Source of the DNA: a virus
Lineage: Duplodnaviria > Heunggongvirae > Uroviricota > Caudoviricetes
IMG/VR virus record: IMGVR_UViG_2563366949_000011
Length of the DNA: 38,235 nucleotides
Direction: 5' to 3' (one strand)
Shown here: piece after piece, positions 1 to 36,603 of the stretch
Position numbering within the stretch: position 1 is the stretch's first letter
Layout of the letters: every line of letters begins with the position of its first letter
Made by a program: the position numbers and the translations under genes
Notes under the pieces: model-generated
Told to the model about the DNA's origin: nothing
What the model saw: only the letters and a program-made list of their open reading frames with translations
Databases searched by the model: none

Positions 1-56
1 AGTCTTGAGTCTTGAGTCTTGAGTCTTGAGTCTTGAGTCTTGAGTCTTGAGTCTTA
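1..56 (-). repeat. Heptanucleotide tandem repeat (AGTCTTG on + strand, AAGACTC on the coding strand); at least 7 complete copies plus a variant copy, array continues past the left window edge
   Basis: Directly visible: positions 1-49 are seven perfect AGTCTTG units, 50-56 is AGTCTTA. The array sits immediately after the ATG at 60..58 (minus strand). Confidence 0.95.
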
Positions 57-60
57 ACAT
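1..60 (-). CDS. neuO: 5' end of a neuO-like phase-variable polysialic acid O-acetyltransferase gene, truncated by the window edge
   Basis: Minus-strand translation from ATG 60..58 reads MLRLKTQDSRLKTQDS..., the RLKTQDS heptad-encoded N-terminus I recall for NeuO of prophage CUS-3. Putative RBS AGGA 7 nt upstream. Only about 20 codons are visible. Confidence 0.6.
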   Translation of the reverse strand, partial: MLRLKTQDSRLKTQDSRLKT

Positions 61-213
61 ATTAGTATCCTACGTTATTTTACCACTAGTTACTTTTCTT
101 GTCATTAAAAAGCATTTAAATTTTTATATTTAATTTCGTTGACGTCAATGTTTTTTGCCAATGTACTTACTTCTTTATGTGATCAGTTCATATTTTTGAC
201 GCCAACGAAACAT

Positions 214-3159
214 TTAGTGCTTCCCTTCTATTAAGTCTAACCTAGCTTTTATTCTTTCTATTTCTCTGCGCTGCCATGCTGCCTCGATATAGAATAAGAG
301 ATCAGGTCTGACCCCCCATCTAGATCCTGCTGGCGTTATTTCAACGCGCTCAATGATGTCTTCCATTACCATCACTGGATTATCATCCTCATCAACAATG
401 ATGCTCCCGTCATTATCAGTCAGCGGCATTTCCCTTTGGCCAGTAATGACGTCATCATATACTGCGGGATAATCGTCATAGCAAAGAAAGGCATAGCGGC
501 ATGTTGTGCTTTCTTCTTCCATGAGTCCGTGAGAAATAAGAACATCACGAAGTTGCTGCGCGATTACACCATGATGTATCCTCGCCCCTTCTTCCCCCTT
601 TATAGCGACAGCGTTCAGCCATTTATAAGCGATATACCTGACGTCACCCCAGGCATCCAGCAATGTTTCGTCAGGAGAGACCGGCTCTGTCTTTAATGTT
701 CCGTCACTGGTAACCACAGGATTGGAGCCAAGATAAACTATCGAGAACCTGTTTCCCGGACCACCAAGAGCATTTACATTATCAAGATAAGGTTTAACAT
801 CTCCGTTCTCAAAAAGATGTTCGAGTGCGTTATATACCGCGCGACGTGGAGTACTGCTTCTGGAACCATGCAACGTTATCATTGCACCATCTGCTGAAGA
901 CGTTGTTTCACCGCCGCTAACGATTAATCTCTGAGCGGTAACATCATCAGACGGTACTTTCTTCGCAATAATGGCGTAATTACCCTCAAGTTTGACTTCC
1001 GCGCGAACTTGTCCTGATGTACCTGCATGGACAGTCAGTGACTGGACGGCAACATCATCTGTGAAATCAACGGGTACAGGAACCGTCCTCACGCCTGACG
1101 TCGACATAAAAGTAGGAAGCGTTCTGTTAGGAGTGGCTCCGTAGACAAAATCCCTTGAAACAAATTCTTCCTGTTTAATTTTCACCCTGAAACAATACAA
1201 ATCAGCCGGGTGACCATCGTGAACATAAGGATATTTTCTGTTGTTATCCCCTATGCTCCATGGGTTTAGAAAGTCTTCCCCACCGAAAATGTAGTACAGC
1301 CAGTTGTCTTTGATACAAACTGAACCAACACCAACCGCAGAGTTAACTATTCCGCCCTGATAAATCTGATCAGTAACATTAACCCACTCTACATTATCCA
1401 GACTCCACTCATTGACGTTAACTCTGGTCATAAATGTTCTTGGATAGTTTCCTGCATAACGGTTATCAGGTTCTCCTCCTTCCCACTCACCAAATGCGCG
1501 CTCACTGCCAAAAATAATCAGCTCATCGCCAACTTTGGCAAAAGGAAGGTTTGAGTGATGAACATTATTTGGGAAGCGAAGAGAATTCCATGATGTACCT
1601 AAATCAGAGCTTCTGTGCAATGAACTACCGGGTTGAGTACTTAATGTCCCCCTGGTCGTCAGATACAGAATGCCATCATAATATTTTACACATGGCTCAG
1701 ATGCATTCGCCTCATATTCTGCAGGTATGCGTCTGCGAACAAAGCTACCAGGAGAACCGAAAGCATCAGAGAAATAGAGTATCCCAAGCTCGCGTGGACC
1801 AATATCACCATTATGGTAGCCAACAGCAAAACTGTTATCGCTAATCGTCGCAAAACTGTGAATCTCAGTAACAGGAGTGCTTCCGTCAACAAAAGAAGGA
1901 ATAGTTCCAAGACTGGTTTTTCTCCATGGTGACGAGTGAAATGATGTACCAAAACTCCAGTATCTACCCTCGTTATTCTGATCCACATCCTGGGTATTTT
2001 GCGTCGTAACTGTAAAAGTATTTTTATCAATAACAGTAGTCACCGTCATATTCCCGGTAACACCTGTAACACCAGAGTTTGAGAAGTTGACAAAATCACC
2101 AGCAAATAATCCGTGATCAGTAATGCGAATATAAGCGACTTGCTGATTTGCTGCTTTCGTTATACCACCATAAACGCGAAGGCTGCGACTCATTGGGCGA
2201 TCCCACAACTCTGCAACCTGCAGTTTATTTCCGCTCACGGTCCGCGTCTCAATTACAGCAAAAAGGCGATTTCTGACAACCCCCATACTCATGCAGTGAT
2301 AGTTAACTGTGGGATAGTTTTCATGTAAATCTGTAAGCCATTCCGGCGTTGTCCAGGTCTTCCCGTCATCTCCTGAGCGAACCCATGCAACATGGAGGTT
2401 ATTTACACCATGGCGGTCTCCAGCCATAAAAGGCGCATAGATGACATTGTCATATACAAACGTTTTATCCTGCGTCCAGGCGTTGTACCACGGTGTATCT
2501 GTAATTTTAAATAACTCTCCCTGGATAAAATCTTCAGAAACATAAAAAAGAGGCTGACCCGGTATTCTCTCAAATAAAAAACGAGCATTTTTAAATCGAC
2601 TGACATCTGGAAGAGTTGATACTTTAAAAGTAAGCCCTCGCCCATCTATCTTTTCACCACCTGTTGCAACAGAAAGTAATTCTGATAGAGCTGATGTATC
2701 ATCATGAACACCATCACCAATAGCCCCCCAACCTCTTACATCATAACTGTCTCTCCATCTTGCTATCTGAAGTTTTGGGTATTTATTCGCTCCATCTGTG
2801 TCTTCTAATTGCTGCCGTAACTGATCAGGATCATACTTCAGCACATTAGGAAAATAGAACTGCTGCGCACCATACGCATCATAAACAGCCATAGAATGGC
2901 CTTGCACGGTAACGAATTTGGCAATCTGTCCGTTATATACCGGATATCCAGCAGCGTTAATGATTATTGGTTGCGAAACAGGAACGTGAGAACCGTCTTC
3001 ATTCTCCACATAGACCTGAATCTGGTTTTCAGGATTTACCGGGTCAGTGTCAATTTTACCGATATAAATTTTGCCATTGGCTACGGCTTTAAAAGAACGC
3101 GCCATAGTGAAGAGTTGCGAAGGCATCGATACAATCACATTGGCTGTAATGTCTGTCAT
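214..3159 (-). CDS. Tailspike: P22-type head-binding N-terminal domain fused to an endosialidase (endo-N-acetylneuraminidase) body and a C-terminal intramolecular chaperone domain
   Basis: 981 aa ORF with ATG and GGAG RBS. N-terminus [17 protein letters not shown]...[14 protein letters not shown] resembles the P22 gp9 head-binding domain. Asp-box motifs SGDDGKTW and SSDLGTSW are typical of sialidase beta-propellers. C-terminal TSDGTLKT (Ser...Lys) and acidic tail resemble the self-cleaving chaperone domain of K1F/CUS-3 endosialidases. Confidence 0.9.
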
Positions 3160-3215
3160 TTAATTTGCTCCAGATGCAAAGAATCGCCGCAGCATGGCCA
3201 CGGTGAATTTTGGGC

Positions 3216-3240
3216 ATAAAAAAACCCAGCCGAAGCTGGG
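3216..3240 (-). terminator. Rho-independent terminator after ant, before the tailspike gene
   Basis: Hairpin CCCAGC-CGAA-GCTGGG at 3225-3240 preceded on the + strand by an A-run at 3216-3224, which is a U-run on the minus-strand transcript. Confidence 0.5.
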
Positions 3241-3259
3241 TCGTTGCGTTGGTTATCTG

Positions 3260-4162
3260 TCAGTAATTATGTACTGAAGGAGGTAATTCTTTATTCTTAA
3301 GTCTCATCCATGCGGAAAGATTCGTTGGTCCGTCTGGCTCATTGATATCAACATCTCGTGTGTGATTGATTAAAACGTCTCTCGCCATATCGATAATACG
3401 GGAGAACTCATAACCGCAGTCATGACATCTGCCGGAATAGTTCGATTGAATTTGTTTTAGCGCCGGATACAGTTCGCGGAATAATGCCTGTGAGCGGTTG
3501 GCATAATCCCATAGCCATACAAGGCTGTTTGCTTCTTTTGCAGAAAGCTCGTTGGTTTTCTTCTCTTGTTTGCCGATGAACTCACCTTCAAGCACTACCC
3601 TGTGGATGTACTCTACTGCTTGTGGTATCTGAGATGCATCAAGCTCTTCAATACTTTCCACATTGAAACGCTGATGAATCATTGCATAAGCTTCTGGGTA
3701 CATTAGATGCTTTTTGCTGACTAGCATATTTACAGCATCACGAAGCGGAGTCCTGTCATCAACAGATGTTTTCTTCCGTGCATTTGCTGCCTCTCCCTTT
3801 GTCCAGTAGTCATGCAGCACAGTAAAGCATTCTTCCTGGTACTGAATCAGTTTATCGCGGATGTCAGCACGAACTTTCTCAGGGTTGATGCTGAACAGCC
3901 ATCCATTTAACTTCTTCAAAGGAAGGCAGAGTAGCTTACGAAGCTTACCATCAGCGGCAACCATGTTCATATGAACACAGTTGAATTTGCTAATCTGCTT
4001 CATGAGTTTTGTTTGCTGCGTTGACCAGCTCATTCCGAGGTTTTCAACGATTGGCTTCATCGCAACATATGCAACTCCGGCAGCCATGGCGGTGATAATT
4101 TGCTGACCGTTGAATGGCACGTAAGAGGTGTTCACTGCTTCTAAAATTGCTATACTATTCAT
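3260..4162 (-). CDS. ant: Antirepressor Ant (P22 immI type)
   Basis: Protein from the ATG at 4162 ([21 protein letters not shown]...) is 300 aa and matches my recollection of P22 Ant. The ORF-track start at 4228 is a GTG without RBS; the ATG at 4162 has GGAGAA upstream. Sits in the arc-ant-tailspike arrangement. Confidence 0.75.
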
Positions 4163-4394
4163 GTTGGTTTTTCTCCACGGATTTACCGACAACCGAAGCC
4201 CTGACTGTTCCAGCAGTTGGGGCTTCACTGTTTTGATTTCTTTGCCGCATCAAGCATCACTTCTGAAAACGTGCGCTTGCCACTGAATACTCTTTCTCTT
4301 CTCAATTTTTCGTTCGTGCCAAATGATTCGCCATGAACAAAATTTGGTCTTAAAATGGTAATCGCAATCTCTTTGACTACTGCATCCAAGCGAA

Positions 4395-4547
4395 TCACAC
4401 CGTTACCCCCTCTCTCTTCAGGCTGTCTATCAGGCGCTTGATAACCTCTGAGTTAAACGACCTGCACTCTTCCTTTGCCCTGCTACCGATAGCATCCTTT
4501 AACGACTGCGGCATCCTTACCAAAATCTTACTTATTTCTTTCTCCAT
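4395..4547 (-). CDS. arc: Arc-like ribbon-helix-helix repressor
   Basis: 50 aa from ATG 4547 with GGAGGG RBS: MEKEISKILVRMPQSLKDAIGSRAKEECRSFNSEVIKRLIDSL. The RSxNSE motif is typical of Arc/MetJ RHH proteins. Located upstream of ant, divergent from mnt. Confidence 0.65.
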   Translation of the reverse strand: MEKEISKILVRMPQSLKDAIGSRAKEECRSFNSEVIKRLIDSLKREGVTV

Positions 4548-4661
4548 GTTACCCTCCACGCAAACAACTCTTTTCGAATACAAAAGATAGCAAAGTGAGT
4601 ATATCTAGTCAAAATTTTTTTGCATACACTTTGCTATCAAATTGAATACCAAAGGTGTTAT
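4548..4661. promoter_or_regulatory. Divergent arc-ant / mnt promoter-operator region with a 12-bp inverted repeat pair
   Basis: GATAGCAAAGTG at 4586-4597 and its exact reverse complement CACTTTGCTATC at 4627-4638 lie in the AT-rich spacer between divergent RHH repressor genes. Confidence 0.45.
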
Positions 4662-4910
4662 ATGGCAAAGGGTGTGTCAATTTCTCCAACTACGGTAAGA
4701 ATCCCTGAATCTTTACGCGAGGCTCTTGCTGTCAGAGCATCAAAAAATGGTCGCTCTGTTAACTCCGAGATCGTCATGATTTTGCAAGCCGCGATTGATG
4801 AAGATAGGTCGCCAAAGTCAGTTGAGTCATTTGCTCAGCAAGAAGCTGATAAATTCAAAGAGGCGCTACTTGAGACGCTAAAGACCATGTATGCTAAGGA
4901 TGAAAAATAA
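4662..4910 (+). CDS. mnt: Mnt-like ribbon-helix-helix repressor
   Basis: 82 aa from ATG 4662: MAKGVSISPTTVRIPESLREALAVRASKNGRSVNSEI...KFKEALLETLKTMYAKDEK. The RHH motif and coiled-coil C-terminus resemble P22 Mnt. Divergent from arc. Confidence 0.7.
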   Translation: MAKGVSISPTTVRIPESLREALAVRASKNGRSVNSEIVMILQAAIDEDRSPKSVESFAQQEADKFKEALLETLKTMYAKDEK

Positions 4911-5446
4911 TGCTGCACACAATTCATTTCTTATGCCCTGTTAACACTGCCACTGTTGGGCAACTTCAGAACCACTGTCTCACCGCATTATCTCAAGGCG
5001 CAACTGAATTAAATATCCATATATCAAGTCAGGGAGGGGAAACTGCTGCTGGCTTTACTGCGTATAACTTTCTTAAGTCACTCCCTGTTACCGTTAGAAC
5101 TCACAACATAAGCAATGTTGAATCCATAGCTAATATCGTTTTCCTGGCTGGCTCAGAACGTTTCGCAAACCCATTATCAAGATTCCTGTTACATCCTCTA
5201 TTATGGTGCTTTGCCTCCCCAGCCGCCGACCATGCCAGATTGAGAGAGTACGGGAAATGCCTCGATAACGATCTTGATCGCTTCGTTGAGACGTTCAATA
5301 TCGACATCGGAACCCATATTAGGTGGGCATCCCTGATAGCAGACTCGACCATTTTGGATGCTAACAAGGCTCTTGAGCATGGCATAATTAATTCCATAAA
5401 AACTGCAAGGCTGGCATCCAATCAGGCAAACTGGTGGGTTGTTTGA
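4910..5446 (+). CDS. ClpP-like serine peptidase (Clp/crotonase fold), translationally coupled to mnt
   Basis: 178 aa; start ATG overlaps the mnt stop (TAATG). Motifs IHISSQGGETAAGFTAYNFLKS, a Ser in NVESIANIVFLAGS and a His in FLLHP align by eye with the ClpP pattern (INSPGG...AASMG...MIHQP). Confidence 0.55.
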   Translation: MLHTIHFLCPVNTATVGQLQNHCLTALSQGATELNIHISSQGGETAAGFTAYNFLKSLPVTVRTHNISNVESIANIVFLAGSERFANPLSRFLLHPLLWCFASPAADHARLREYGKCLDNDLDRFVETFNIDIGTHIRWASLIADSTILDANKALEHGIINSIKTARLASNQANWWVV

Positions 5447-5469
5447 TGGGTAAATCATGATTACTCCTT

Positions 5470-5494
5470 ATAAAAAACCCACCTGACGGTGGGT
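5470..5494 (-). terminator. Rho-independent terminator at the convergence point (mainly minus-strand sense)
   Basis: Hairpin ACCCACC-TGAC-GGTGGGT at 5477-5494 with an A-run at 5471-5476 on the + strand (U-run for the minus transcript). It abuts the stop codon of the YafO-like gene. Confidence 0.5.
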
Positions 5495-5944
5495 TTAGTC
5501 AAACATAGTGTTTCTAAAGTCTCTCGCATACCCTGCTAACACTCTCATTCTATTATGATTGTTAGCAGACATGTGAGCTACAGGATGAAAAAGAGCAATC
5601 AATGAATACCTGTTCTCATCAAAAAGATTTTGTGCATAAACGAGAGCGGTATTGGATGTTTTATGCCACTGCAACTTTTGCGGTGTGCTGATATCTGTGC
5701 CATTTTTTATTGGCTCAAATTTATTTTCACCAATTGCTAAATGAAGGTGCATAAGGCCTGCATCTTCAATATCAGGAGGTCGATGATAAGAGGTGTCTCT
5801 GCCAAAATAGCTGGGCAACGTTCCCGTAGACTTGTAGATGATAAAATCATCTACAAGTGTTTGTTTTAAATCAGGAAACTCAACAAAAACCGGGGAGAAA
5901 AAATAGTCAAAACTATCCTGATTATATTCCACGGTTACTTGCAT
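5495..5944 (-). CDS. YafO-like toxin domain protein (putative ribosome-dependent mRNA interferase family)
   Basis: 149 aa, ATG with GAGGT RBS. Segments DDFIIYKSTGTLPSYFGRD, LMHLHLA, ALVYAQNLFDE, LIALFHPVAH and NNHNRM align by eye with E. coli YafO (DFISYKRDGVLPDIFGRD, HIHLA, LVYCQGAFDE, NNQMH), recalled from memory. Confidence 0.55.
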   Translation of the reverse strand: MQVTVEYNQDSFDYFFSPVFVEFPDLKQTLVDDFIIYKSTGTLPSYFGRDTSYHRPPDIEDAGLMHLHLAIGENKFEPIKNGTDISTPQKLQWHKTSNTALVYAQNLFDENRYSLIALFHPVAHMSANNHNRMRVLAGYARDFRNTMFD

Positions 5945-5952
5945 GTTTTACC

Positions 5953-6519
5953 TCAGTGGAAGTTACCAGAGTGAAACACACGAGTCCCGTGCTCAGCAAG
6001 CGCACGCAAACCAGCCATATCTACGGAACTATCAAAAACAACCGGAACACATGAGCGTTGTTTAATAAGACTATTCAGGTTGGTTACGGCAGATCTGGCA
6101 TCAGCAACAACGATATAGATATCTCTTGCGATCTCTTTAAAATCAGCAGAAGCTTCTTTGAATACCGATTTCATTGCCCCTTCAAGTCCTCTCAATTGAT
6201 GCTCTATCAATCGAGACTTTTCTGGTTCAATGATAGACAACACATTGTCTACATTCTCATCGGTAGCGTTTGCAAGAACACGATAAGCGTATTTCAGCAT
6301 TCGAGACAATTCTTTAATCGAAGACACCGCCTCATGAAGCTCATCATTAGCCCGTTCACTGCTGAATGAGGATTGATGGTAAGCGTGCTGAACGTTATCA
6401 GTAACAACCACCTCACAACTGAACGCAGAAGCTTGCTGTAATAGCAAACCTATTGCGACTCCAGCTTTGGCAGCGTTCAAGCTAAACATTTCATCAATCC
6501 CATTAGTCTCATTGCTCAT
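5953..6519 (-). CDS. Hypothetical protein (188 aa), immediately upstream of and co-oriented with the YafO-like gene
   Basis: ATG at 6519 preceded by AAGGAGG. Stop lies 8 nt before the YafO-like start. No family recognised by eye. Region is AT-rich relative to the structural genes. Confidence 0.55.
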   Translation of the reverse strand: MSNETNGIDEMFSLNAAKAGVAIGLLLQQASAFSCEVVVTDNVQHAYHQSSFSSERANDELHEAVSSIKELSRMLKYAYRVLANATDENVDNVLSIIEPEKSRLIEHQLRGLEGAMKSVFKEASADFKEIARDIYIVVADARSAVTNLNSLIKQRSCVPVVFDSSVDMAGLRALAEHGTRVFHSGNFH

Positions 6520-6694
6520 ACAAACCTCCTTCTTATCGGAGATTATCAATAGCTATGCATCCATTGAATACACGCTATGCGCAATAAGTTTACGTCACGT
6601 GATATCATTATGCAACCACCGTTCTATCACCGACTAACTTTACTCCCACTCCTATACATCATCTGGTATCCTGCGCAAAACTAAGGAGGTTGGT

Positions 6695-7045
6695 GTGAAT
6701 GCTCAGTCTGTCATCATGGTTTTCCTTGGGCTGATTGTCGCAAAACTATATCCAGACTGGTGGAAAGGGGCATTAGCTACTGTCGCCATCTATTTGCTTT
6801 TATCCATCGTTAAGCGATCACTCGCTGAGACCGTAAATCAAGCAAAACGTTTCTCATTTAAGAGTTTAATAAACTATGTTACTGGGCTTATTTTTTGCCT
6901 TTCAATTCTGATCGCTTCGGCTTTTTTGCCCGTATCAATAGCTAATTTTTTTGGCGCACCATATGAGGTAGGTTATCTATTCTCTGTTTCCTGTCTTGCC
7001 ATTGCTCTTCTTTACCTGTGGACGAGATCAAAGAATAAAAATTAG
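6695..7045 (+). CDS. Small integral membrane protein (116 aa, about three hydrophobic helices), position equivalent to P22 sieA
   Basis: GTG start with AAGGAGG 5 nt upstream. Hydrophobic segments VIMVFLGLIVA, ALATVAIYLLLSIV and LIFCLSILIASAFLPV. Plus strand, convergent with the ejection-protein operon. Confidence 0.5.
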   Translation: MNAQSVIMVFLGLIVAKLYPDWWKGALATVAIYLLLSIVKRSLAETVNQAKRFSFKSLINYVTGLIFCLSILIASAFLPVSIANFFGAPYEVGYLFSVSCLAIALLYLWTRSKNKN

Positions 7046-7062
7046 CCATCCGTGGCTGCCAG

Positions 7063-9078
7063 TTATTGAGCTTCTTTTTGTGATGCCTGTGCGACTCTGG
7101 TTAGCGATTGTGTGACCGTACTGATCGCTATGTCATATGCTGTGCTACCTTTTGGCGTATTTGCCAGACGTAACAAGGCATTTCGTATAACAGGGCTTTC
7201 GTATGCCTTCGCAGCTCCTCCTACGACACCAGCAGCAGGAACAACAAACGCAGCCGTTTTTAGCATCCCCGCTAATACTGCTGCGTTTATGATGCCACCA
7301 CCAACTAACAATCCATAAAGCTGCTGACCATTTAAGTTTTGAACGTTCGCTTTTGCCGCGTGTCTTGTATCGTTGAGGTATTTAATAACGCCGTCCAGTT
7401 CCTTTCCATGTACGCCTTTAAAGAAAGTTGCTGATTGCTTCCTGTTCCGGTGTAACGCATTAATAAACTTTTCAACACTAATATTTCCAGACGGATCAGT
7501 CGCCTTATCTACAGCATTCTGAACTATGGCTGCTCGTGCGTTTTGCCTACCATTGTCATCCAGAAGCCTGTAAAGCTGAGAACGTTCTGATGGGTTTTGG
7601 CTAAAAACGAGTTTTGTTACATCCTCAGGTGTAGCCTTGCCGCTGGCTATTGCCTTTTGAACGCGCGTTCTTCCCATCATGTCATTGAATCTAGCCCATG
7701 AGCGATCAACCCTAGACATATTGGCAGCTTCTTCTGAGCCTAGTTTTTGGGATACTGCTTTTTTCATATCCGCTGTATATGCCTTGTAGACAATATCGCT
7801 GGCTTTCTGGAGCGTGTCTTTATCAACAGTCTCGTTTGAATTCATGAACCGCTTTCGAAGGTCAGTTCTGTTTTCTCTCGCCAGACGCAGGTCATTGGGT
7901 CCGCTGGTGATATCGTCTTTAAATTGCTGCAAGACTTTTACCGCGGCTCTATCCTGAGATTTGCCCGGGCGGCTTAACACGGCAATCTGATTGTCGATAG
8001 CTTTTACCGTGTTTGAGAGATCGACAGGGGTATCCCCCATAGCGTCAATTATGCGGTTATATCGCTTTCCTGCTGCCTCAATGAATTTTTGTTGCCCTTT
8101 AGTCGCAGATTCATAAAGCTGTTTATCAGAAATGCCACCCAGACCATCGCTAAATGTTCTGACTAAATTTTCTCGTGCTTGTTGTTGATTCAGCCGATTC
8201 TTACCGGTTCCAAAAAAAGGAACTCTTTCGCCTAATGTCTGAGCCTGACTCTGCATAAAGGTTTTATCTTTCAGCGTGTCACTGGTCATTAACGGCAGGT
8301 TTCTTTCCGACGCAAAATCGACAGCAGCCTTTGCTTCCGGTGACATCTCACCGCGAACAGCCCTGGAAACCGCACTAACTGTATTTTCCAGCCCCTTGCC
8401 AACACCACCAATGCCAGCAGAAATTACCGTTTGTGCAGGATCAATATCTTCTCCGCCAGCAAGGCTGGTGCCACCCTGTAGTGCTAAATCTGTAGCAGCT
8501 GATTTCCCTATGGCACCAAGCACCGTTCCAGCCCTGCCCGCTGGTGTGAACGCTAACGCATTAGCAAGAAACGAAGTCAGGTCTTGCGGTGATAAACCTG
8601 GCTTGTTCAGGGCATAATCACCGGATGGCAGGGAAACGATAGTGTTACCCTTCTCATCCTGCCTTAATTTCGCCCCCATACTCTGAAGAATCTTTTCCTG
8701 AGACGCGTCGGAGCCGAAAAGTTGAGACCATCCAGCCTTCAGGGCATCCATGCTTAGTGAGTTCAACTCAGGGGCAGCCCCAACATTTTGCAGTCTCTCC
8801 ATTTCTGGTGTCATTCGGCTTTCACCGGTAACGGCATCGCGCATTGCAGCACCTAAAACAGCCCCTTGCTCAGCAGAGCGATCTAGTCCTTCCTTCTGCT
8901 GAGTGGCAAGCTGTGCATATCCTGATGCAAGTGAGTTGTCTGCTGGCGATTGCTGAACACCTTGTTGTGTTGGCGCTGACTGACCAGCAAAATACTCATC
9001 AATGGCGGACCCAATATCTTCCGTGCTCGTACCATCAGGAAAGGTAAATGTCTTACCATTTGCAGTTACTTTCATCAT
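7063..9078 (-). CDS. Ejection (injection) protein, P22 gp16-like
   Basis: 671 aa ORF at the position and orientation of P22 gene 16, last gene of the head/ejection operon. Confidence 0.75.
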
Positions 9079-11231: not shown

Positions 11232-11687
11232 CTATCTCCCGTGATTCAGGAAGTCGATTAGTTCTTCGCGTGTGGCGCTGTAAAACGTCACGTCATCCAC
11301 GCCTTTGAAGTATTTCTTGATGGTTCCTACACGCTTAAGGCCAATCATTGCGCAGTACATCTGCCCGTGGCGGAATTTGCGTGCAGCAAATGATGTGACG
11401 CACTGAACGGTGGTGTTGGTCAGAATGTATCGCCAGAACGCCAGCCCTATTTCCTTGCTGAAGCCGCGAATCTCTGGCAGGTACATGGCGTGGCAATCGA
11501 ATGTAAGCGGCTGAATCTCCTGATAGTAAACAATGCCGCCGAACTGACCGTGCACGTTAACCTCAAAGTAACGGCATTCAGGTTTGTAGTCGTATCCATC
11601 ACCGTTGTTGCTCCCGGCGATAATGTCAGGGTGATTTCCTACGGCTTCTATCAGGTCGATGTTTCGCGTTGGTTTGAATGTAATCAT
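11232..11687 (-). CDS. Head assembly protein, P22 gp14-like
   Basis: 151 aa ORF between the gp7-like and tail-needle genes, as P22 gene 14. Confidence 0.65.
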   Translation of the reverse strand: MITFKPTRNIDLIEAVGNHPDIIAGSNNGDGYDYKPECRYFEVNVHGQFGGIVYYQEIQPLTFDCHAMYLPEIRGFSKEIGLAFWRYILTNTTVQCVTSFAARKFRHGQMYCAMIGLKRVGTIKKYFKGVDDVTFYSATREELIDFLNHGR

Positions 11688-12388
11688 CAGTCAATCAGCC
11701 CATGTAATCTAAGTGCTGTTTCAAGCGCCAGAATACGCTGCCGCGCCTGCTCCAAACCTGTAGCGAGAGCTGCGACTTCGGATTGTGTGTACGTAGTGCC
11801 GACCGTGTATGACTGGTTAGCGTTGAATGAACCAAGAAGTGGCGTACCTGTGGCTGCAGTCCATCCGCTCTGCCTTGCTCCAACGACCTGAATTCCATCA
11901 ACTGAATATGATGTTTTTACATCCAGCGGTGACGCAAGAGACTGCAATTCGGTTACGGTTTTCGATACGTAATCACTCTTAATGCCAGAGACATCGTTTT
12001 CTACGTCATCCAGTCTTTGGTCAACAGTGACCAGATGCGCCTGAATATCGATAACCTCATCCAGCAAGTAATCAACATCGCTACGCAGTACGACTATCTT
12101 CCCTTCGGCAGTTGTTAACCTGACCTCAAGTAGATTTATCGCTTTTGTGTTTGCGGTGATTCTTGCGTCGTGATCAGCCAGTTCGACATCCTGTTCATCG
12201 TTTTTTACCTGGGCATCGTAAGCGCCCTGACCAGCCTGATTTGCCTTCCCGGCAATTGCGCCGACATCAGCCCCCTGATTAATGACATACAGCAGGTAAG
12301 ACTGGCTGAATATATTGCGTGGAAGGATTGATGTATCGAGTCGTGTAGCCTGAATTGTTACCGGCTCATTGAGATTCGAATCAGCCAT
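11687..12388 (-). CDS. Tail needle protein, P22 gp26-like
   Basis: 233 aa; N-terminus [36 protein letters not shown] and C-terminal ...LHGLID match my recollection of P22 gp26. Confidence 0.85.
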
Positions 12389-15759: not shown

Positions 15760-16653
15760 TTATTTTTTTGCCTTTTTAGCGGCGAAATACGGCGTCCAGT
15801 CACCAGTTTCCAGCGCCTTGGCTTTCAATTTGTCGAGGTTGTTGATTACTGCGCCGTTGCTCCCCTTAACCGTCGGGGTTGTGGCTGCCGTGGTTTTTGC
15901 TTTTGGCATGATTCTGGCCTTCGATTCGATACGTTCCAGCAGACGACCAATTGCTACGGGGTTGGTAGCTTCTGCCAGTTGCTTGCGCAGTTCAGCGTTG
16001 CGACCAAGCGCCAGAACAACGATTTCCGGCTTCTCTGACTCAAACAGGATCGCGTTTTGTGTCTCGATGGGGATTTCCTCGAGTACGGCCTGCTCAGCTT
16101 CCTGATAGCCAGGAACTTTGAGAGCCTTAACACGTTGCTGATATTTGGATAATCGCTCTTGATAGGCAGCCTGAAGCTCCTGCTCCTTCTGCTTGCGAGC
16201 CATCTCCTGTTGCTGGTACTTGCCATTATCCTCTGCCCACTTAGCCATGCGTTGCTGGTAGATTTCTTCATCGAAACCGATGTCCTCATCATCCAGTTTT
16301 GGCATTCGCGGTGGTTGAGTGATTACCGGCTGCTGCTCGACGGGTTTCTGAGACTGACGCATCAGCTCTTTCAGCTCGCGGTCTTTCTCTTTAATCGTCT
16401 TGCGCAGGTGTTTTACCAGTCCATGCTCAGCGCCATCTTCGCTGGTTGGCGAATCCAGCTTTTCGTCACCAAAGTAGAATTCCTGTTCTGATTCGTCGTC
16501 ATCAGTTTCAGTAGCCTCCTCTGCATCATTGCCTGAGGACTCACTGCCATCTTCTGTTTCGACTTTTTCAGCCAGTTCGACATCATCAGGAATCTGCTCT
16601 GACGCGTCGGTTTCGATTTCAACTTCTGGTGTGTTTTCTGCCATCTGGTCCAT
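15760..16653 (-). CDS. Scaffolding protein (P22 gp8-like)
   Basis: 297 aa, very acidic N-terminus, Glu/Lys/Gln-rich helical middle and basic C-terminus; between portal and coat genes. Confidence 0.85.
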   Translation of the reverse strand: MDQMAENTPEVEIETDASEQIPDDVELAEKVETEDGSESSGNDAEEATETDDDESEQEFYFGDEKLDSPTSEDGAEHGLVKHLRKTIKEKDRELKELMRQSQKPVEQQPVITQPPRMPKLDDEDIGFDEEIYQQRMAKWAEDNGKYQQQEMARKQKEQELQAAYQERLSKYQQRVKALKVPGYQEAEQAVLEEIPIETQNAILFESEKPEIVVLALGRNAELRKQLAEATNPVAIGRLLERIESKARIMPKAKTTAATTPTVKGSNGAVINNLDKLKAKALETGDWTPYFAAKKAKK

Positions 16654-24824: not shown

Positions 24825-25009
24825 CGTCTTCCCCTCTTGCCTTGTTTGACCATCAGGACGCCGTTAACTATTACGTGACGCTCGCCTTTGCTGTCTCGGT
24901 TGTACTTGAGCACTGTTCCTCTTGCGCAGGAAAGCATCCTCGCCACTTCGGTCTGATTGCCTCGTGTCTGGATAAGAAGCTCTGGTATCGTTTGAATTGT
25001 GGCGTTCAT
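24821..25009 (-). CDS. ninH: NinH-like protein
   Basis: 62 aa; YGNQTEVARMLSCARGTVLKY and VIVNGVLMV resemble lambda NinH. Confidence 0.65.
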   Translation of the reverse strand: MNATIQTIPELLIQTRGNQTEVARMLSCARGTVLKYNRDSKGERHVIVNGVLMVKQGKRGRR

Positions 25010-25368
25010 GCGTTCTCCAGTTCGGTGATTTTTATTCCAAGCCGTCCGCCTGGTACTTTCACACCACGAATTACGCGAATGTCATCGAATTGCTCGTCGT
25101 CTTCCGCAAATCCGGCGTGGATAAGGGAGTCGAGTAAACCTTTCAGGATGTTGTCGAGGTCGCGGCGGCGGGAGTCTGGAACGTCTGCGATGACTTTGAT
25201 ACGGAGTCGTGATTTGGTGAAAATGTCTAACTTGAGTTGGCGGATGATTTGCTGAACGTCTTTTCGGTATTTCTGGCCTTTATCGCTTATGTAATATTGG
25301 CTTCCCCGTCTTCGCCAGTAGGTATTCACCGACGGCGGGTATGGAAGCACAAACTGATATTCGTTCAT
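25006..25368 (-). CDS. rusA: RusA-type Holliday junction resolvase
   Basis: 120 aa; PPSVNTYW, RRRDLDN and GGRLGIKITELEN align with E. coli RusA motifs. Confidence 0.85.
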   Translation of the reverse strand: MNEYQFVLPYPPSVNTYWRRRGSQYYISDKGQKYRKDVQQIIRQLKLDIFTKSRLRIKVIADVPDSRRRDLDNILKGLLDSLIHAGFAEDDEQFDDIRVIRGVKVPGGRLGIKITELENA

Positions 25369-25655
25369 GACTTAATCTTCCCCTCCCTCAGCAGTATCGC
25401 CTGCGTTCTGATCACGCCTTCGAGGTGGTAAAGTCTGGCGTCTTTGTTGTCGAGATTATGGGTGCGTCGGTCGATTTCATCGTGACACGCACTACAAGCC
25501 CATGCACCGATCAGGTCGTCAGGCTTCATTCCCGTTCCGCAAATTCCAGCCATCCGGTAATGTGCCAGAACTGTAGTTTCAGGGTTGCCATTGCATACGC
25601 CGTAAATACGTACCTGACATTCTCTTCCGCGCGCTTCTTTGCGTAGGTTAGCCAT
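25365..25655 (-). CDS. YbcO-like DUF1364 protein (predicted nuclease)
   Basis: 96 aa; MANLRKEARGRECQVRIYGVCNGNPETTVLAHYRMAG resembles DLP12 YbcO. Confidence 0.65.
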   Translation of the reverse strand: MANLRKEARGRECQVRIYGVCNGNPETTVLAHYRMAGICGTGMKPDDLIGAWACSACHDEIDRRTHNLDNKDARLYHLEGVIRTQAILLREGKIKS

Positions 25656-26377
25656 TAAGCAGCCTCCCCTGTTACTTTCAGCATTCCGTTATCGAGCAGC
25701 TTTCTGGTCAGCCACTGTTGACCACGCCCGGTGATTTTTGTGGTGAACGATATCTGTATTCCGTGATTTGTGTTGACCGCTGTTTCTTTCACTGTGAAAT
25801 AGCCGCGATCCATATATTCCTGCATTGGCACATTGCGCCGGGAACCTGAAGCAATAAGGATTTTGTGATCACGCATCCACGCAAACAGTTTGTTTTGACC
25901 AATACCAACAACCTTTGCAAAGTTTCCAATCAAAATTCCGCTGGCCTCGCCAACGCGATCGGCAAACTCAACTTTAGGTGCGACAATTGCGAGCTGGTTT
26001 TCCAGTTGCATTTTCTGCTCAGCAAGATCGGCAGCAAGGCGCAACGCTTCCGGTAGCGTTTTGGGGATATTAACCGCAGCTTCTTCAAGCTCTCGCCAGC
26101 GGTCAACAAGGCGAGCGGTGAACTCTGGCGACAACTGGGCAACAACGACAATACTGTCTCGCTTACCTTGTTCGCCCTCGAAGACGTAATGCTCGTACTG
26201 AACATTGAACCCTAAGTTATTGATTCTTTCGGAAACCTCAATTTGAGGAAGCCGGATAACACCATTTTTAGCCAGCGTTTCGATGGTACGTTTCACATTG
26301 TCATGACGCTTACCAACCAACTCAGCAATTTCAATGCTTGTCATTTTGATGGCATTGCCATTCATTAACTCATTCAT
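25655..26377 (-). CDS. Antirepressor-like protein with Rha-type N-terminus and KilAC-type C-terminal domain, inserted in the nin region
   Basis: 240 aa; N-terminus MTSIEIAELVGKRHDNVKRTIETL is a Rha-family signature; the C-terminal half resembles the KilAC antirepressor domain. Confidence 0.65.
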   Translation of the reverse strand: MNELMNGNAIKMTSIEIAELVGKRHDNVKRTIETLAKNGVIRLPQIEVSERINNLGFNVQYEHYVFEGEQGKRDSIVVVAQLSPEFTARLVDRWRELEEAAVNIPKTLPEALRLAADLAEQKMQLENQLAIVAPKVEFADRVGEASGILIGNFAKVVGIGQNKLFAWMRDHKILIASGSRRNVPMQEYMDRGYFTVKETAVNTNHGIQISFTTKITGRGQQWLTRKLLDNGMLKVTGEAA

Positions 26378-26546
26378 CGTCTTCTTCCTCGTACATTGAG
26401 CTATTCGGATCGCTCATCAGTTCTGCGCAGCAGTGCTCACACATGTGAACTTCCAGCACATGCAGCTTCTGACCGCAGTTAGCGCACGTTAAAGCTCGCT
26501 CGACGCTTTCTTTCTGGCATTGAAGGGATTGGGATGGGCTAAGCAT
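26370..26546 (-). CDS. ninF: NinF-like protein (not in the supplied ORF track, below its length cutoff)
   Basis: Hand translation of the minus strand from ATG 26546: [58 protein letters not shown], 58 aa, matching my recollection of lambda NinF; stop overlaps the downstream start. Confidence 0.65.
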   Translation of the reverse strand: MLSPSQSLQCQKESVERALTCANCGQKLHVLEVHMCEHCCAELMSDPNSSMYEEEDDE

Positions 26547-26892
26547 TATTGGCGTCCTGCATCATGAGAAAGACAATCATGGCGGCGCGGAGTTGGTTTT
26601 CATCTTGAGTCATATGATATGGGGTGCTATCACTGCCAACTTTTCTATGCGCTGCCTTCCATAATCCATTTTCTGGCGCTGGAATAATGCCAATTCTGTT
26701 CTCTACGATAATCGGCTCTGCGTCTTCAGGATTATTGCAGTAGTCGTACCATCGATAATTACCATTTGATTCATTGCCGACAGACCGTCCATCTGCGTTG
26801 TGCGGATAACCTAATGGTATTGCCCCCACTATCGCTTTAAATACTCGCTTGTTAATTTCAAAATCACTTAACTGTGAATAATCCATTGTCAT
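26539..26892 (-). CDS. Hypothetical nin-region protein at the ninE/ninX position
   Basis: About 117 aa from ATG 26892 ([18 protein letters not shown]...), start adjacent to the ninD stop. Assignment is by position only. Confidence 0.5.
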
Positions 26893-27065
26893 TTCCTCGC
26901 GCGATGTCTTAGCCACCGGATATCCCACAGGTGAGCCGTGTAGTTGAAGGTTTTTACGTCAGATTCTTTTGGGATTGGCTTGCGTTTATTTCTGGAGCGT
27001 TTCGTTGGAAGGTATTTGCAGTTTTCGCAGATGATGTCGGTGATACTTCGTCGCTGTCGTCTCAT
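26889..27065 (-). CDS. ninD: NinD-like protein
   Basis: 58 aa from ATG 27065: [52 protein letters not shown], as recalled for lambda NinD. Confidence 0.7.
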
Positions 27066-27502
27066 GCCGCCCTGTCTCCCCATCGCGCTTTCCATTCGAG
27101 AGCCAGTCGCGCTTCGTCTGACCACTTAACGCCACGCTCTGTACCGAATGCCTGTATAAGCTCTAATAGCTCCGCAAATTCGTTTACACGCATCCTGCTG
27201 GTTGACTGGCCTATTACCACAAAGCCATTCCCGGCAAGGTTAGGAACAACATCCTGCTGCTTTAATGCTGCGGTAAACACACACTTCCAGCTTTCTGCAT
27301 CCAGCCAGCGACCATGCCATTCAACCTGACGAGAGACGTCACCAAGGCAAGCCCAAAGCTTTCGATTCTGGTCTAAGCTGCGGTTGCGTTCCTGAATGGT
27401 TACTACGATTGGTTTGGTTGGGTCTGGAATGATTTGCTGTACTGCGTGAATAGCGTTCTGCTGATGGATGTGGCTTCTTAGTTCAAACGTTAGTTTCCTC
27501 AT
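27062..27502 (-). CDS. ninB: NinB (Orf-family recombination mediator)
   Basis: 146 aa, near-identical over its length to my recollection of lambda NinB. Confidence 0.85.
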
Positions 27503-27719
27503 GGGATGAACTCCAGTTTGCGATGTTAAATTCCCATTTAATTACCTTTGCATACCCAATTTTGAACCCATCAATACCTATCCACCGATTGCCACTCCAA
27601 TAAGCTGTACCACTTTGCTTGAAATGATGTGGATGCCTAGATTGAGTGGTCACAGTTACAGGTAAATATGGCTTCGGGTATTCCCCATTCCCTGGATAAC
27701 CAGATTTAATTTTGCTCAT
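27483..27719 (-). CDS. Hypothetical protein upstream of ninB
   Basis: 78 aa; ATG overlaps the stop of the upstream ORF (ATGA). Confidence 0.5.
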   Translation of the reverse strand: MSKIKSGYPGNGEYPKPYLPVTVTTQSRHPHHFKQSGTAYWSGNRWIGIDGFKIGYAKVIKWEFNIANWSSSHEETNV

Positions 27720-27907
27720 TGATACCCTCTCTCACTTAATCGCGCCCACGCTTCGTTAAACTCTTCTCGGGTTGCGCCGGATTTTCTTTCTTCAAACATC
27801 ATGCATTCGCTGATGTCTCCCCATGACTTTGGTCGCTTTTCAGCGAACAGATCATCCCATTCGAATACCCAGCGTCCTGATTTTCGGTATGGTAAATGGT
27901 CAGCCAT
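27716..27907 (-). CDS. Hypothetical small protein
   Basis: 63 aa ATG-initiated ORF (MADHLPYRKSGRWVFEWDDLF...); overlaps the 3' 109 nt of ORF 27799..28041 in another frame, so one of the two is probably wrong or the locus is frameshifted. Confidence 0.4.
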   Translation of the reverse strand: MADHLPYRKSGRWVFEWDDLFAEKRPKSWGDISECMMFEERKSGATREEFNEAWARLSERGYQ

Positions 27908-28041
27908 GTTGTGCTGTTCGCTGGATACCCATAGAGAACTTCGACTTTTTGATCACGGTCTTTATGCTTTTTCAGCAGGATAAAGCCAGCAACCAGCGAA
28001 GCTCCGGCAAGAATGATGATTGGAATTTGCCAGTCAGCCAC
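27799..28041 (-). CDS. Hypothetical small membrane protein (GTG start), possibly part of a frameshifted gene
   Basis: 80 aa with hydrophobic segment IPIIILAGASLVAGFILL. Its start lies inside a 27-codon ATG ORF (28034..28117) that begins ATGA-overlapped with the helicase stop; a GGGGG run sits at the frame junction. Confidence 0.3.
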   Translation of the reverse strand: MADWQIPIIILAGASLVAGFILLKKHKDRDQKVEVLYGYPANSTTWLTIYHTENQDAGYSNGMICSLKSDQSHGETSANA

Positions 28042-28113
28042 ACTTCCCTCTCCCCCAAATAAAAAGGCCTGCGATTACCAGCAGGCCTGTTACAAGCTCA
28101 GTGATGTAGATGG

Positions 28114-29490
28114 TCATACGTCAGCCCCTTGTGCATATCGTCTGCCACGCGCAGCAGGTGCATTTGATGCTGTGCAAATCTGTCTGGCTTCATCCTGGTC
28201 ACATGCAACAAAGTGTCCGTTACAGAACCGCTGGTAAACCGTACCAAGTGAGCCAAAACGGTTTTTCGTCACGATGATTTCAGCAAATGGCGCGGCGCTA
28301 CTGTTCTCGTCATATACCGCTTCACGATAGAGCATGATGATTGAGTCTGCGTCCTGCTCAATGCTTCCTGAATCACGCAAATCTGCGTTTGTCGGGCGTT
28401 TGTTTGGTCGCTTCTCAACATCGCGCGAAAGCTGACTCAGGGAGATAACGGGCGTTTTCAGGTCTTTCGCCATCGCCTTAAGGCTTCCGGAGATGTGAGC
28501 AATTGCGAGGTCGTTGCGATCTGCTTTCGGCTTCTCAATCAGGCCAAGATAATCCGCCATGATGAGTGACAGGTTTGGATTTTCCTGTTTGTGCCGTTCT
28601 GCGATTGAGCGTATTTCTTCGACCGATAACCGCGAGGCATCGACTACCCATACATCCAAATCTGCAAGCTGACTCATGCCGTTAGCAACACGCGCCCAGC
28701 CTTCATCATCCATCGATGCAGGATTTCGCAGTACGCTAACCGACATCCTCCCGGCGTTGGCAATGCTTCGCTCTGCAATCTGCAATGCGCTCATTTCCAT
28801 TGAGAAAATCAATACCCCGCGCCGGACGTCAGAACCAGGAATAACGCGGCTTGCAACGCCTTCGGCAATCTTCAGCGCCAGCTCGGTTTTCCCCATACCA
28901 GGACGAGCAGCGATTATCACTAGGTCTTCCGCGTTCATCCCTCCGGTGATGGCATCAAGTTCTTCGATTCCGGTCTTCAGGGTATCTGACTCTTCTCCGT
29001 TCCTCAGACGCCTGTCAAGCGTGTCGGTGTAGTCAGTGATGATTTCCCCTAACCGTACAGGTTTAACCTCGTCACGGGGCTTTCTGATGGCTGAAAGACG
29101 CTTTACAAGTTCATCCATCGCCTGACTCGATGCGTCGATGGTTCCGCTCTGAATTGGTTCACGCATTTCATCCATGATTTCCAGCACCAGACGGCGGTGA
29201 TAGTTATCCTCGACCATTCCGGCATATCCCTTCAGGTTTGCGGCACTCGGGCAGTTTTTGCTGGTCATCAGGATTGACGTGAAATGCTCCTCTCCGCACG
29301 CTTCGGCAACCATCAGCGCGTCGATTAGGTTTCTGTTTCGCGCCTGCTTGCGGATAACCTCGAAGGCTTTCCGGTAGAGCGGAATTGAAAACGCTTCCGG
29401 CTCAAGCGTTGCCAGAACGTCACTGGCGGTTGGTGTTAATCCACCAATCAGCAGGCCACCGATAACGCTCGCTTCGATATCCTGTCTCAT
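28114..29490 (-). CDS. DnaB-family replicative helicase (P22 gene 12-like)
   Basis: 458 aa; Walker [16 protein letters not shown], Walker B-like [12 protein letters not shown], and DnaB-like N-terminal domain; start overlaps the initiator stop. Confidence 0.9.
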
Positions 29491-30434
29491 GCAATCCCCC
29501 TGTCTGCAAACTTCCCTTCCCGAACTCCCGTTAACGAGTCTTCCCTCAGCAGGTAATCAAAATCTGCCGTCCAGCCAGTGTCGTTGTCTCCGAAGTAAAA
29601 CGGCTTGGCCTGATGCACAAACGCCCTGACATACGCTCTGAAACCGTCCACGTTTGGCGTTTTCAGTTGCGGGATGATTTTCTTCAGGCGACGTTTGCGT
29701 TTCTCGTTGAGCGCAACAGCGTGTGGCAGTCTGTCACCGACTTCGGTGTTGTAGGCGTTCAGGAAAGATTCGTAGTCGATTCGTTCTGCCCTTCGACGTT
29801 CAGGTTTATCCTGCCCATCTCCTCCCCCATTGGGGGGTAGGGGGGTATTATTTATATTCTTGTTAATACCTTCTTGTTCATGATGTGCGGTTGTTTGTGC
29901 GGCTTCATGTGCGCTTTCATGTGCGGCATGTGCGCTGAAAGCCGCTCCATTACTGACTTCGCCATGTGCGGCATCATGTGCGGTTGTTTGTGCGGCTTCA
30001 TGTGCGGGTAAATTGTCCATTTTTTGAGCATATTCATGGTAATTTGTGATGGTTATCACACGACCTTTTTGCTTCTCTCCATCAATGGAGATCATCCCCT
30101 CTTTCACAAAAACCTGAAGCATCCGCTCAACCTGATCACGGCTTGCTGGCTTGCCATGCCTGTCGCATAACTGAAGACCTAAATCAGCTGCTGTCACAAC
30201 CAGTTGACCGGGTTGCAGATGCCATTCATGACCTTTGAAATTCGCTTTGTATGGCTTTCTGGCGGCATTCAGGAGAAGGTTTTCCCACAGGGTGCGAAGA
30301 TAAACATCTTTCGCCCATGACTGTTTCAGAATGCTCCGGTACAACGGAATGTAACCAGTTTTCTGGTTCTCCATCCTGTTGCTCCTGCGCTCGTGTGCGG
30401 CGCTGAAATCGTAGATTTTTGCTGTATTGCTCAT
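29487..30434 (-). CDS. Replication initiator (lambda O / P22 gene 18 functional analogue) containing the origin iterons
   Basis: 315 aa. Alternative start at ATG 30374 ([16 protein letters not shown]...) has a better RBS (AGGAG). Contains the internal peptide repeat [10 protein letters not shown] encoded by the iterons. Confidence 0.7.
29845..30007. repeat. Putative origin of replication: iterons inside the initiator gene plus adjacent AT-rich stretch
   Basis: Two near-identical ~33-bp direct repeats (29877-29912 and 29971-30006, ...ATGTGCGGTTGTTTGTGCGGCTTCATGTGCG) plus further ATGTGCG(G/C) copies at about 29917-29937 and 29961-29982; G-tracts and AT-rich sequence at 29827-29875. Confidence 0.5.
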
Positions 30435-30436
30435 AA

Positions 30437-30709
30437 CTACCTGCCTTGACGAAAGACCTTAAGAACATCGTTAAACTGACTTACGGATATGTCTTCTTTG
30501 AGAAGCTTTTCCAGAAATGCGTTTGGAATGAACGTATATCCCTCCTCTTTTGGGAGAGACGGGAGCAACGCCCTCGCCTCAGCTTTCAGAAGCTCAGTTC
30601 TGGCAACTTTCACAAAAGAGATTTGAGTTCTTTCATCAATGGAACGAAGGAAGCGCAAACGCTTAGCTTCTTTGTGTGTATCAGGTGGATTAAAGCCTTT
30701 GTTTCGCAT
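30437..30709 (-). CDS. Hypothetical protein between cII and the replication initiator gene
   Basis: 90 aa from ATG 30709 (MRNKGFNPPDTHKEAKRLRFLRSIDER...). The longer ORF-track version overlaps cII out of frame and is not credible. Confidence 0.45.
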   Translation of the reverse strand: MRNKGFNPPDTHKEAKRLRFLRSIDERTQISFVKVARTELLKAEARALLPSLPKEEGYTFIPNAFLEKLLKEDISVSQFNDVLKVFRQGR

Positions 30710-30731
30710 ATAATTACCTCGCTGGATGTTG

Positions 30732-31025
30732 TTAAAATTCCATTTGTATTTGATCAGAACGCTCGGTTGCCGCCGGGCGTTTTTTATTGGTGAGAATCGA
30801 AGCAACTTGTCGTGCCAATCGAGCCATGTCGTCGTCGACAACACCCCATTCAAGAACAGCAAGCAGCATTGAGAACTTTGGAATCCAGTCCCTCTTCCAC
30901 CTGCTGATCTGCGACTTATCAACGCCCACAGCTTCCGCTGTCTTCTCAGTTCCAAGCATTGCGATTTTGTTAAGCAACGCACTCTCGATTCTTAGAGCCT
31001 CGTTGCGTTTGTTTGCACGAACCAT
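30732..31025 (-). CDS. cII: CII transcriptional activator (lambda type)
   Basis: 97 aa from ATG 31025: MVRANKRNEALRIESALLNKIAMLGTEKTAEAVGVDKSQISRWKRDWIPKF..., essentially as I recall lambda CII. The ORF-track 5' extension runs over nutR and is rejected. Confidence 0.85.
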   Translation of the reverse strand: MVRANKRNEALRIESALLNKIAMLGTEKTAEAVGVDKSQISRWKRDWIPKFSMLLAVLEWGVVDDDMARLARQVASILTNKKRPAATERSDQIQMEF

Positions 31026-31082
31026 ATGTAAGTATTTCCTTAACAAATAAGAAGTTATGCGCATCAACTTATGCGCGTTGTA

Positions 31083-31128
31083 TTCCCGCATTTCGGCGGG
31101 AATGAGGACCATGACTGTTAAAGAGCAA
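31083..31128 (-). promoter_or_regulatory. nutR-like site: boxA plus boxB hairpin
   Basis: Minus-strand sense reads TGCTCTTTAACA (boxA-like; lambda boxA is CGCTCTTACACA) followed by the hairpin TTCCCGCCGAAATGCGGGAA; the same boxA/boxB pair recurs in the leftward operon. Confidence 0.6.
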
Positions 31129-31133
31129 TTTGC

Positions 31134-31319
31134 TTATGCCGCTTTGCGGTAAGCGCTTTCTTGATACTTCAGGGCGCCAGCTGTAACGACTTCCAGTCGA
31201 TAGGCGTCTTTCTCTGGGATGACTTCCTTCCACTGAGAGACTGCTGCGTCGCTAATGCCTAACGCTTTAGCTACAGCACGCTGGGTTCCGAAGTGGTCGA
31301 TAACATCTTTCTTGTACAT
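31134..31319 (-). CDS. cro: Cro-like repressor
   Basis: 61 aa with HTH GTQRAVAKALGISDAAVSQW; divergent from c2 across the operator region. Confidence 0.8.
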   Translation of the reverse strand: MYKKDVIDHFGTQRAVAKALGISDAAVSQWKEVIPEKDAYRLEVVTAGALKYQESAYRKAA

Positions 31320-31399
31320 AGACTCGCTCCGAAATTAAAGAACACTTAAATTATCCACTAAAGGAATCTTAAGTCAAGTTTATTTAAGATGTCTTAACT
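31320..31399. promoter_or_regulatory. OR operator region with pR (and presumably pRM)
   Basis: P22-type operator-like sequences ATTAAAGAACACTTAAAT (31334-31351) and ATTTAAGATGTCTTAA (31382-31397). On the minus strand, TTGACT (complement of 31372-31377) and ATAATT (complement of 31349-31354) with 17-bp spacing form a pR-like promoter for cro. Confidence 0.6.
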
Positions 31400-32050: not shown

Positions 32051-32074
32051 GGGGGCATTCGCCCCTTTTTTTTA
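32051..32074 (+). terminator. Rho-independent terminator immediately after c2
   Basis: GGGGGC-ATTC-GCCCC hairpin (32051-32065) followed by a 9-T run. Confidence 0.7.
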
Positions 32075-32141
32075 TTTCCTTTAAAAATCAAAGCCAAACT
32101 TAAGTTACGAAAGAAAATTTAAGTTTTCTTCAAAAATACTC

Positions 32142-33718: not shown

Positions 33719-33722
33719 TTTC

Positions 33723-36602: not shown

Positions 36603-36603
36603 T

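Follow-up and report, generated by a model that had tools for sequence, protein, structure and literature searches.

The chimeric nature of the tailspike of prophage CUS-3, its K1 specificity and its linkage to neuO were reportedly published in 2006-2007, by Stummeyer et al. in 2006 and King et al. in 2007. One review (PMC5380687, citing Stummeyer 2006) describes it as having an N-terminal domain in common with P22, Sf6, and HK620 and a catalytic domain in common with coliphage K1F. The K1F enzyme, endoNF (GH58; structures 1v0e, 3gvl, and 3gw6), consists of a beta-propeller with an inserted barrel, a stalk, and a chaperone domain, behind a T7-fibre-like N-terminal adaptor; the residues counted as its key catalytic ones (PMC12632334), with a role in catalysis or in binding of the substrate, are H350, R549, E581, R596, and R647. 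It cleaves itself by means of a Ser911-Lys916 dyad and an arginine from the triple beta-helix, R897, which is required (PMC8326128); this machinery is described further in PMC3742443 and PMC4690869. The tailspikes of P22 (gp9), Sf6 (gp14), and HK620, by contrast, have right-handed beta-helix bodies that are O-antigen endoglycosidases, without a sialidase propeller or an S74 domain. A conserved YDPDQ closes the head-binding module in tailspikes of the P22/Sf6 type. As to neuO, PMC3046976 places the insertion of its phase-variation repeat two nucleotides past the start codon, and NeuO reduces killing by K1 phages, which has been read as superinfection exclusion (PMC13001214; PMC9659370).

The sequence considered here is a stretch of 38,235 nt of viral DNA (IMG/VR record IMGVR_UViG_2563366949_000011), referred to as a whole as the window. 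Its tailspike frame, read from 3159 to 214 on the (-) strand, is unbroken over 981 codons, and the ORF is confirmed to be genuine and intact (Table 1). Chance occurrence of its motifs, or a pseudogene, was also considered, and is excluded by the E-values and the unbroken frame. Along its entire length the gene has 99.8% nucleotide identity with siaK1 of CUS-3 (CP000711.1, 2526-5471). Five nucleotides differ, all between nt 27 and 129 of the gene, with a single amino acid difference: P43 in the window vs. T43 in CUS-3 of strain RS218. From aa 145 to aa 981 the two proteins are 100% identical. The CUS-3 protein (ABQ88383.1 / CAJ29292.1) also has the same length of 981 aa and the same domain order, with ant upstream and the neuO repeat downstream of its gene. 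In CP000711.1, siaK1 is annotated as “endosialidase tailspike protein,” with endo-alpha-sialidase activity as its GO term on IDA evidence (PMID 16689790). For the window tailspike this activity is a prediction, known only through the annotation of the 100% identical CUS-3 catalytic region; the specificity for K1 polysialic acid proposed in the original prediction probably holds by the same identity to an assay-annotated enzyme. Among 5426 complete E. coli genomes, 181 carry a full-length copy of the gene, those of UTI89, IHE3034, and NU14 among them. The tailspike is thus the already published CUS-3 endosialidase tailspike: its finding is a rediscovery, with nothing new in it.

Table 1. Features of the tailspike gene and its immediate surroundings, in window coordinates.
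Feature	Position (nt)	Strand	Details
neuO, 5' end only	1..60	(-)	ATG 60..58, TT, 7.9 AAGACTC copies running off window edge
Tailspike ORF, allele of CUS-3 siaK1	214..3159	(-)	981 aa + stop; ATG start, TAA stop
C-terminal intramolecular chaperone / self-cleaving domain (Peptidase_S74), aa 818-981	217..708	(-)	Pfam PF13884, 2.7e-10
Stalk, triple beta-helix / beta-prism (End_tail_spike), aa 663-817	709..1173	(-)	Pfam PF12219, 6.7e-78
Six-bladed beta-propeller catalytic domain (End_beta_propel), aa 213-662	1174..2523	(-)	Pfam PF12217, 1.1e-233
Beta-barrel inserted in propeller (End_beta_barrel), aa 324-406	1942..2190	(-)	Pfam PF12195, 1.2e-46
Endosialidase N-terminal extension (End_N_terminal), aa 146-212	2524..2724	(-)	Pfam PF12218, 2.9e-37
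Neck/linker, aa 114-145	2725..2820	(-)	First segment also found in endosialidases from other kinds of phage
P22-type head-binding (virion attachment) domain, aa 1-113	2821..3159	(-)	Pfam PF09008, 1.2e-66
Shine-Dalgarno GGAG	3168..3171	(-)	9 nt 5' of tailspike ATG; read from sequence
Intrinsic-terminator-like hairpin + T-run	3223..3242	(-)	Between ant stop codon and tailspike gene

By Pfam, the protein is an ordered series of six domains, the canonical endosialidase series behind a Head_binding domain. This bears out the original prediction, which had read the first ~110 residues as P22 gp9-like, the body as an endosialidase with sialidase Asp-box motifs, and the last ~160 residues as an endosialidase chaperone domain. 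At the N-terminus the whole 113-position Head_binding model is covered, the domain ending in NVLKYDPDQ; the sequence here is ~94% identical to that of Sf6, and ~75% to that of P22. In searches against solved structures, the Sf6 tailspike (7sg7) matches aa 1-118 at 5e-67 and P22 gp9 structures (1lkt, 2xc1, and 8tvr among the matches) the same residues at 1e-46 to 1e-53; taken together, Sf6 and P22 tailspike structures match the N-terminal domain with E-values of 1e-45 to 1e-67. The endoNF structures 1v0e and 3gvl match aa 145-817 with E = 0, the N-terminal extension aligning with 1v0e from chain residue 2. The propeller matches the complete 367-position model, and is ~70% identical to endoNF in its solved structures; the sialidase fold follows from this identity. 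Over aa 114-981 the identity to endoNF is 64%. The Peptidase_S74 match (“chaperone of endosialidase”) spans aa 818-878. The pre-cleavage chaperone construct of endoNF (S911A; 3gw6) matches aa 698-979 at about 1e-93, and the whole chaperone domain, 164 aa from Ser818 to the end, at 7.7e-95; GA-1 gp12 (3gud) matches this domain as well, at 3.3e-10. Solved structures at 55-70% identity span aa 1-118 and 145-979.

The two parts of the protein meet at a defined point. In a MAFFT alignment of the tailspike with the full-length K1F, phi92, and K1A endosialidases, on which the residue assignments below are also based, the junction lies between YDPDQ and LRQQ, at residues 113 and 114 (window nt 2820/2821). 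The neck that follows, aa 114-145, has 53% identity with K1F and 66% with phi92. Because similarity to P22 and Sf6 stops at NVLKYDPDQ (113) and endosialidase similarity begins at 114, the tailspike is a chimera of two sharply joined parts. This division is also seen in the PHROG scan: some 20 tailspike families match only from aa 1 to ~120, and the endosialidase family phrog_1171 matches 120-980. The right-handed parallel beta-helix body of P22-like tailspikes was not found in the protein, similarity to P22 and Sf6 ending at residue 113-118. Membership among gp9-type tailspikes therefore applies to the N-terminal module only, which is the known CUS-3 situation.

Two matches to S-x-D-x-G-x-x-W, the Asp-box motif, are found in the whole protein: SGDDGKTW (aa 262-269, nt 2353-2376) and SSDLGTSW (aa 517-524, nt 1588-1611). 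Residues H250, R456, E488, R503, and R554 align with endoNF H350, R549, E581, R596, and R647, and are kept in phi92 and K1A. Two other endoNF residues are replaced, K410 by G310 and Q853 by M760; K410 was dispensable in a mutational scan of K1F (PMC12632334). The tailspike also has a 7-residue insertion, FVDGSTP (aa 423-429), that endoNF and K1A lack; phi92 likewise has an insertion at this site.

The candidate cleavage serine had been placed in TSDGTLKT, encoded near 706-708. TSDGTLKT is aa 817-824, and the AGT codon of Ser818 occupies exactly 706-708. Lys823 (codon 691-693) follows five residues later, so that a dyad with S-x4-K spacing comes immediately behind the stalk, and the pair aligns with S911/K916 in K1F, phi92, and K1A; the Ser-Lys dyad expected of endosialidase chaperone domains is thus present, as is the sialidase fold, and it was the absence of either that would have refuted the original prediction. 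In the stalk, Arg804 (codon 748-750) aligns with endoNF R897. Mature endoNF chains in solved structures terminate at the Thr that aligns with Thr817; together with the aligned dyad, this predicts a cut between Thr817 and Ser818 and release of a 164-residue fragment. Autoproteolytic release after trimer folding is what we infer from these correspondences.

The surroundings of the gene are those of a P22-like prophage related to CUS-3. The hairpin 5' of the tailspike gene, with a stem of 8 bp (5 GC pairs) and the tail TTTTTTTAT, falls within a stretch labelled “bsq1 boundary sequence” in the CUS-3 record. Further 5' are a P22-type antirepressor (ant) and Arc/Mnt-like repressors and, beyond these, P22-type gp20, gp7, gp10, gp4, coat, portal, and large terminase genes, whose products match Pfam models essentially end to end. 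Those of the tail hub and virion are P22_Tail-4 (gp4), Phage_stabilise (gp10), P22 gp7, Inj_translocase (gp20), P22 coat, and P22 portal. This gene set confirms the P22-like virion that had been postulated. For the ORF presumed to encode the gp26 needle (11687-12388), Pfam gave no match at 1e-5, and a tRNA scan of the window found no tRNA gene. A small ORF at the right end (38035-38235) has a sub-threshold HTH match only.

The postulated neuO-like neighbor was correctly identified, but no more of it than the start codon and ~8 heptanucleotide repeats (1-60) is in the window, the acetyltransferase body lying outside. In position the AAGACTC repeat corresponds to the poly(psi) repeat annotated in CUS-3, which lies just downstream of siaK1; the fragment is assigned to neuO because this layout matches CUS-3 and because the repeat fits its published description (PMC3046976). 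Positions 1-3592 are collinear with CUS-3 (99.2%), and 25001-38015 match it at 99.3%, reaching the CUS-3 attR end. The backbone of the prophage departs from that of CUS-3 of RS218 at 3593 and stays divergent up to at least 10000, the immI/moron region included. Within this interval, 4300-7100 is 100% identical to E. coli ATCC 11775, a strain in which an IS21-family element lies between ant and the tailspike gene and the annotated tailspike is shorter.

The ORF is accordingly best read as coding for a receptor-destroying tailspike, that of a prophage of CUS-3 type (P22-like, Lederbergvirus) in E. coli K1, with a probability of about 0.96; no sequence evidence against this was found in the window. 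As in its homologues, the tailspike would fold as a homotrimer, with the C-terminal 164-residue domain assisting trimerisation of the precursor as an intramolecular chaperone of the triple-beta-helix stalk. After proper folding of the stalk, Arg804 of a neighboring chain would complete the active site, and Ser818, activated by Lys823, would cut the Thr817-Ser818 bond and so free the chaperone. The mature spike (aa 1-817) could then dock through its head-binding domain on the gp4/gp10/gp26 tail hub, and its propeller, with H250, R456, E488, R503, and R554, would bind and hydrolyse the K1 capsule's alpha-2,8-polysialic acid. Degradation of the capsule would allow the virion to reach the outer membrane. 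In the lysogen, the neighboring phase-variable neuO O-acetylates the same polymer.

Whether the gene is still put to this use is a separate matter from its identity. CUS-3-like prophages often decay, and their tail and coat genes are frequently pseudogenes (PMC9659370), so that an intact gene is no proof of infectious phage being made, and the IS21-family element of ATCC 11775 shows an interruption between ant and the tailspike gene. It could be supposed on these grounds that the tailspike gene, though it looks intact, is a relic of a prophage in decay, its product no longer built into virions, the element being kept only for its neuO cargo. This is unlikely: the window tailspike is full length, with one substitution in a conservative context and no IS, and when compared with their Pfam models, the ORFs for portal, coat, gp4, gp10, gp7, gp20, and terminase are of full length too. 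It would in any case bear on current use, and leave the identity of the gene as it stands.

The mature spike could also conceivably differ from the one outlined. Retention of the C-terminal domain, uncleaved, as a structural or receptor-binding tip is extremely unlikely, given that Ser818, Lys823, Arg804, and Thr817 are all in register with endoNF, that the domain and its endoNF counterpart have 56% identity, and that the annotation of the phi92 homologue divides it at this serine into two mature peptides. It would agree with the 109 kDa entered for CUS-3 in a review table (PMC5380687), which is the full-length mass, and in those parts of the literature that were searched no description of cleavage of the CUS-3 protein itself was found. 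As to substrate, a range shifted from plain K1 polymer to substrates such as O-acetylated polysialic acid or the alpha-2,8/2,9 K92 polymer is suggested by the FVDGSTP insertion, which sits where the phi92 enzyme endoN92, annotated as cutting both polymers, is also inserted, and by the replacement of endoNF K410 and Q853. Such a shift is nevertheless very improbable with a catalytic region 100% identical to that of the CUS-3 enzyme, for which endo-alpha-sialidase activity is annotated on the basis of direct assay, with all five named catalytic residues kept, and with K1 strains as hosts. A reading in which the insertion, G310, and M760 tune the enzyme to the partly O-acetylated polysialic acid made by neuO, is quite improbable; if true, the receptor landscape of CUS-3-type phages would differ from that of lytic K1 phages.

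Read as a CUS-3-type tailspike, the protein is a textbook case of modular tailspike evolution, one capsule-degrading cassette being found on several virion adaptors: P22-like in the window, T7-like in K1F, epsilon15-like in vB_EcoP_ZX5, and that of a myovirus in phi92. The tail fibre of vB_EcoP_ZX5, a Uetakevirus (epsilon15-like), carries the endosialidase cassette with 99.5% DNA identity over gene nt 522-2914, and 95% protein identity from residue 134, behind an unrelated 192-residue N-terminal adaptor of its own, for a different virion type. All this has been known since 2006-2007, and the window adds only another allele and a slightly different prophage backbone. The tailspike gene marks the neuO-carrying CUS-3 prophage in invasive ST95 E. 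coli K1.

The tailspike gene has five nucleotide differences from its counterpart in CUS-3 RS218, and all of them lie in a stretch of roughly 100 nt inside the part that encodes the head-binding domain (gene nt 27-129; window 3031-3133), a cluster that looks like a small recombination patch. They alter residue 43, which is proline in the window protein, as it also is in Sf6 and P22, but threonine in CUS-3 RS218. Among the best 12 complete E. coli genomes listed, none was 100% identical across the tailspike gene. The E. coli type strain ATCC 11775 (L006, 3836-6138) has an IS21-family element (ISEc12 istA/istB) between the antirepressor gene ant and the tailspike gene, and its annotated tailspike gene is shorter, at 2913 nt; these are an example of the decay of CUS-3-like prophages described in PMC9659370. 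No insertion of this kind is present in the window.

The immI/moron region (window 3593-7060) is unlike that of CUS-3 RS218. Window 4300-7100 is found at 100% identity in E. coli ATCC 11775, MS7163, and others, and its portion up to ~5500 at 99% identity in phage phiv205-1. Three ORFs have no Pfam match at 1e-5, while their neighbors match P22 families strongly; by position, these would be the tail needle gp26 (11687-12388), the ejection protein gp16 (7063-9078), and the scaffold (15760-16653).

The left edge of the window falls within the array of AAGACTC units of neuO, so that neither copy number nor ON/OFF phase can be read from it; the assembly seems to have broken off in this array. At the right end, similarity to CUS-3 stops at ~38015, the attR end of CUS-3. 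The short ORF beyond this point is possibly a regulator belonging to a neighboring integrated element.

Features at the two window edges and in the immI/moron region
Feature	Position	Strand	Remarks
neuO AAGACTC phase-variation repeat	within 1-60; ATG at 58-60	minus	7.9 copies in window, then TT and ATG
Sigma-70-like site, ATGACA-17-TAAAAT	105..77	minus	Extended -10; directly upstream of neuO start
Arc-like gene	4395-4583	minus	
Mnt/Arc-like gene	4620-4910	plus	Abuts ClpP-family protease-like ORF
ClpP-family protease-like ORF	4910-5446	plus	
YafO-family toxin ORF	5495-5944	minus	
198-aa ORF, phrog_8416	5953-6549	minus	Directly upstream of YafO-family toxin ORF
tRNA T-arm-like GGTTCGATTCC	~38005-38017		Just before end of CUS-3 homology
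66-aa ORF	38035-38235	plus	In last 220 bases; sub-threshold helix-turn-helix match only

The endosialidase body differs from that of endoNF at several positions: K410 and Q853 of endoNF are replaced by G310 and M760, and a 7-residue insertion, FVDGSTP (aa 423-429, window 1873-1893), has no counterpart in endoNF or K1A, although phi92 endoN92 also has an insertion at this site. The same endosialidase cassette is found in vB_EcoP_ZX5 (MW722083.1, 2303-5422), an epsilon15-like Uetakevirus, with 99.5% DNA identity to the window over gene nt 522-2914 and 95% protein identity from residue 134, but there it sits on an unrelated 192-aa N-terminal adaptor. This points to the cassette having been exchanged recently between temperate podoviruses of two lineages.
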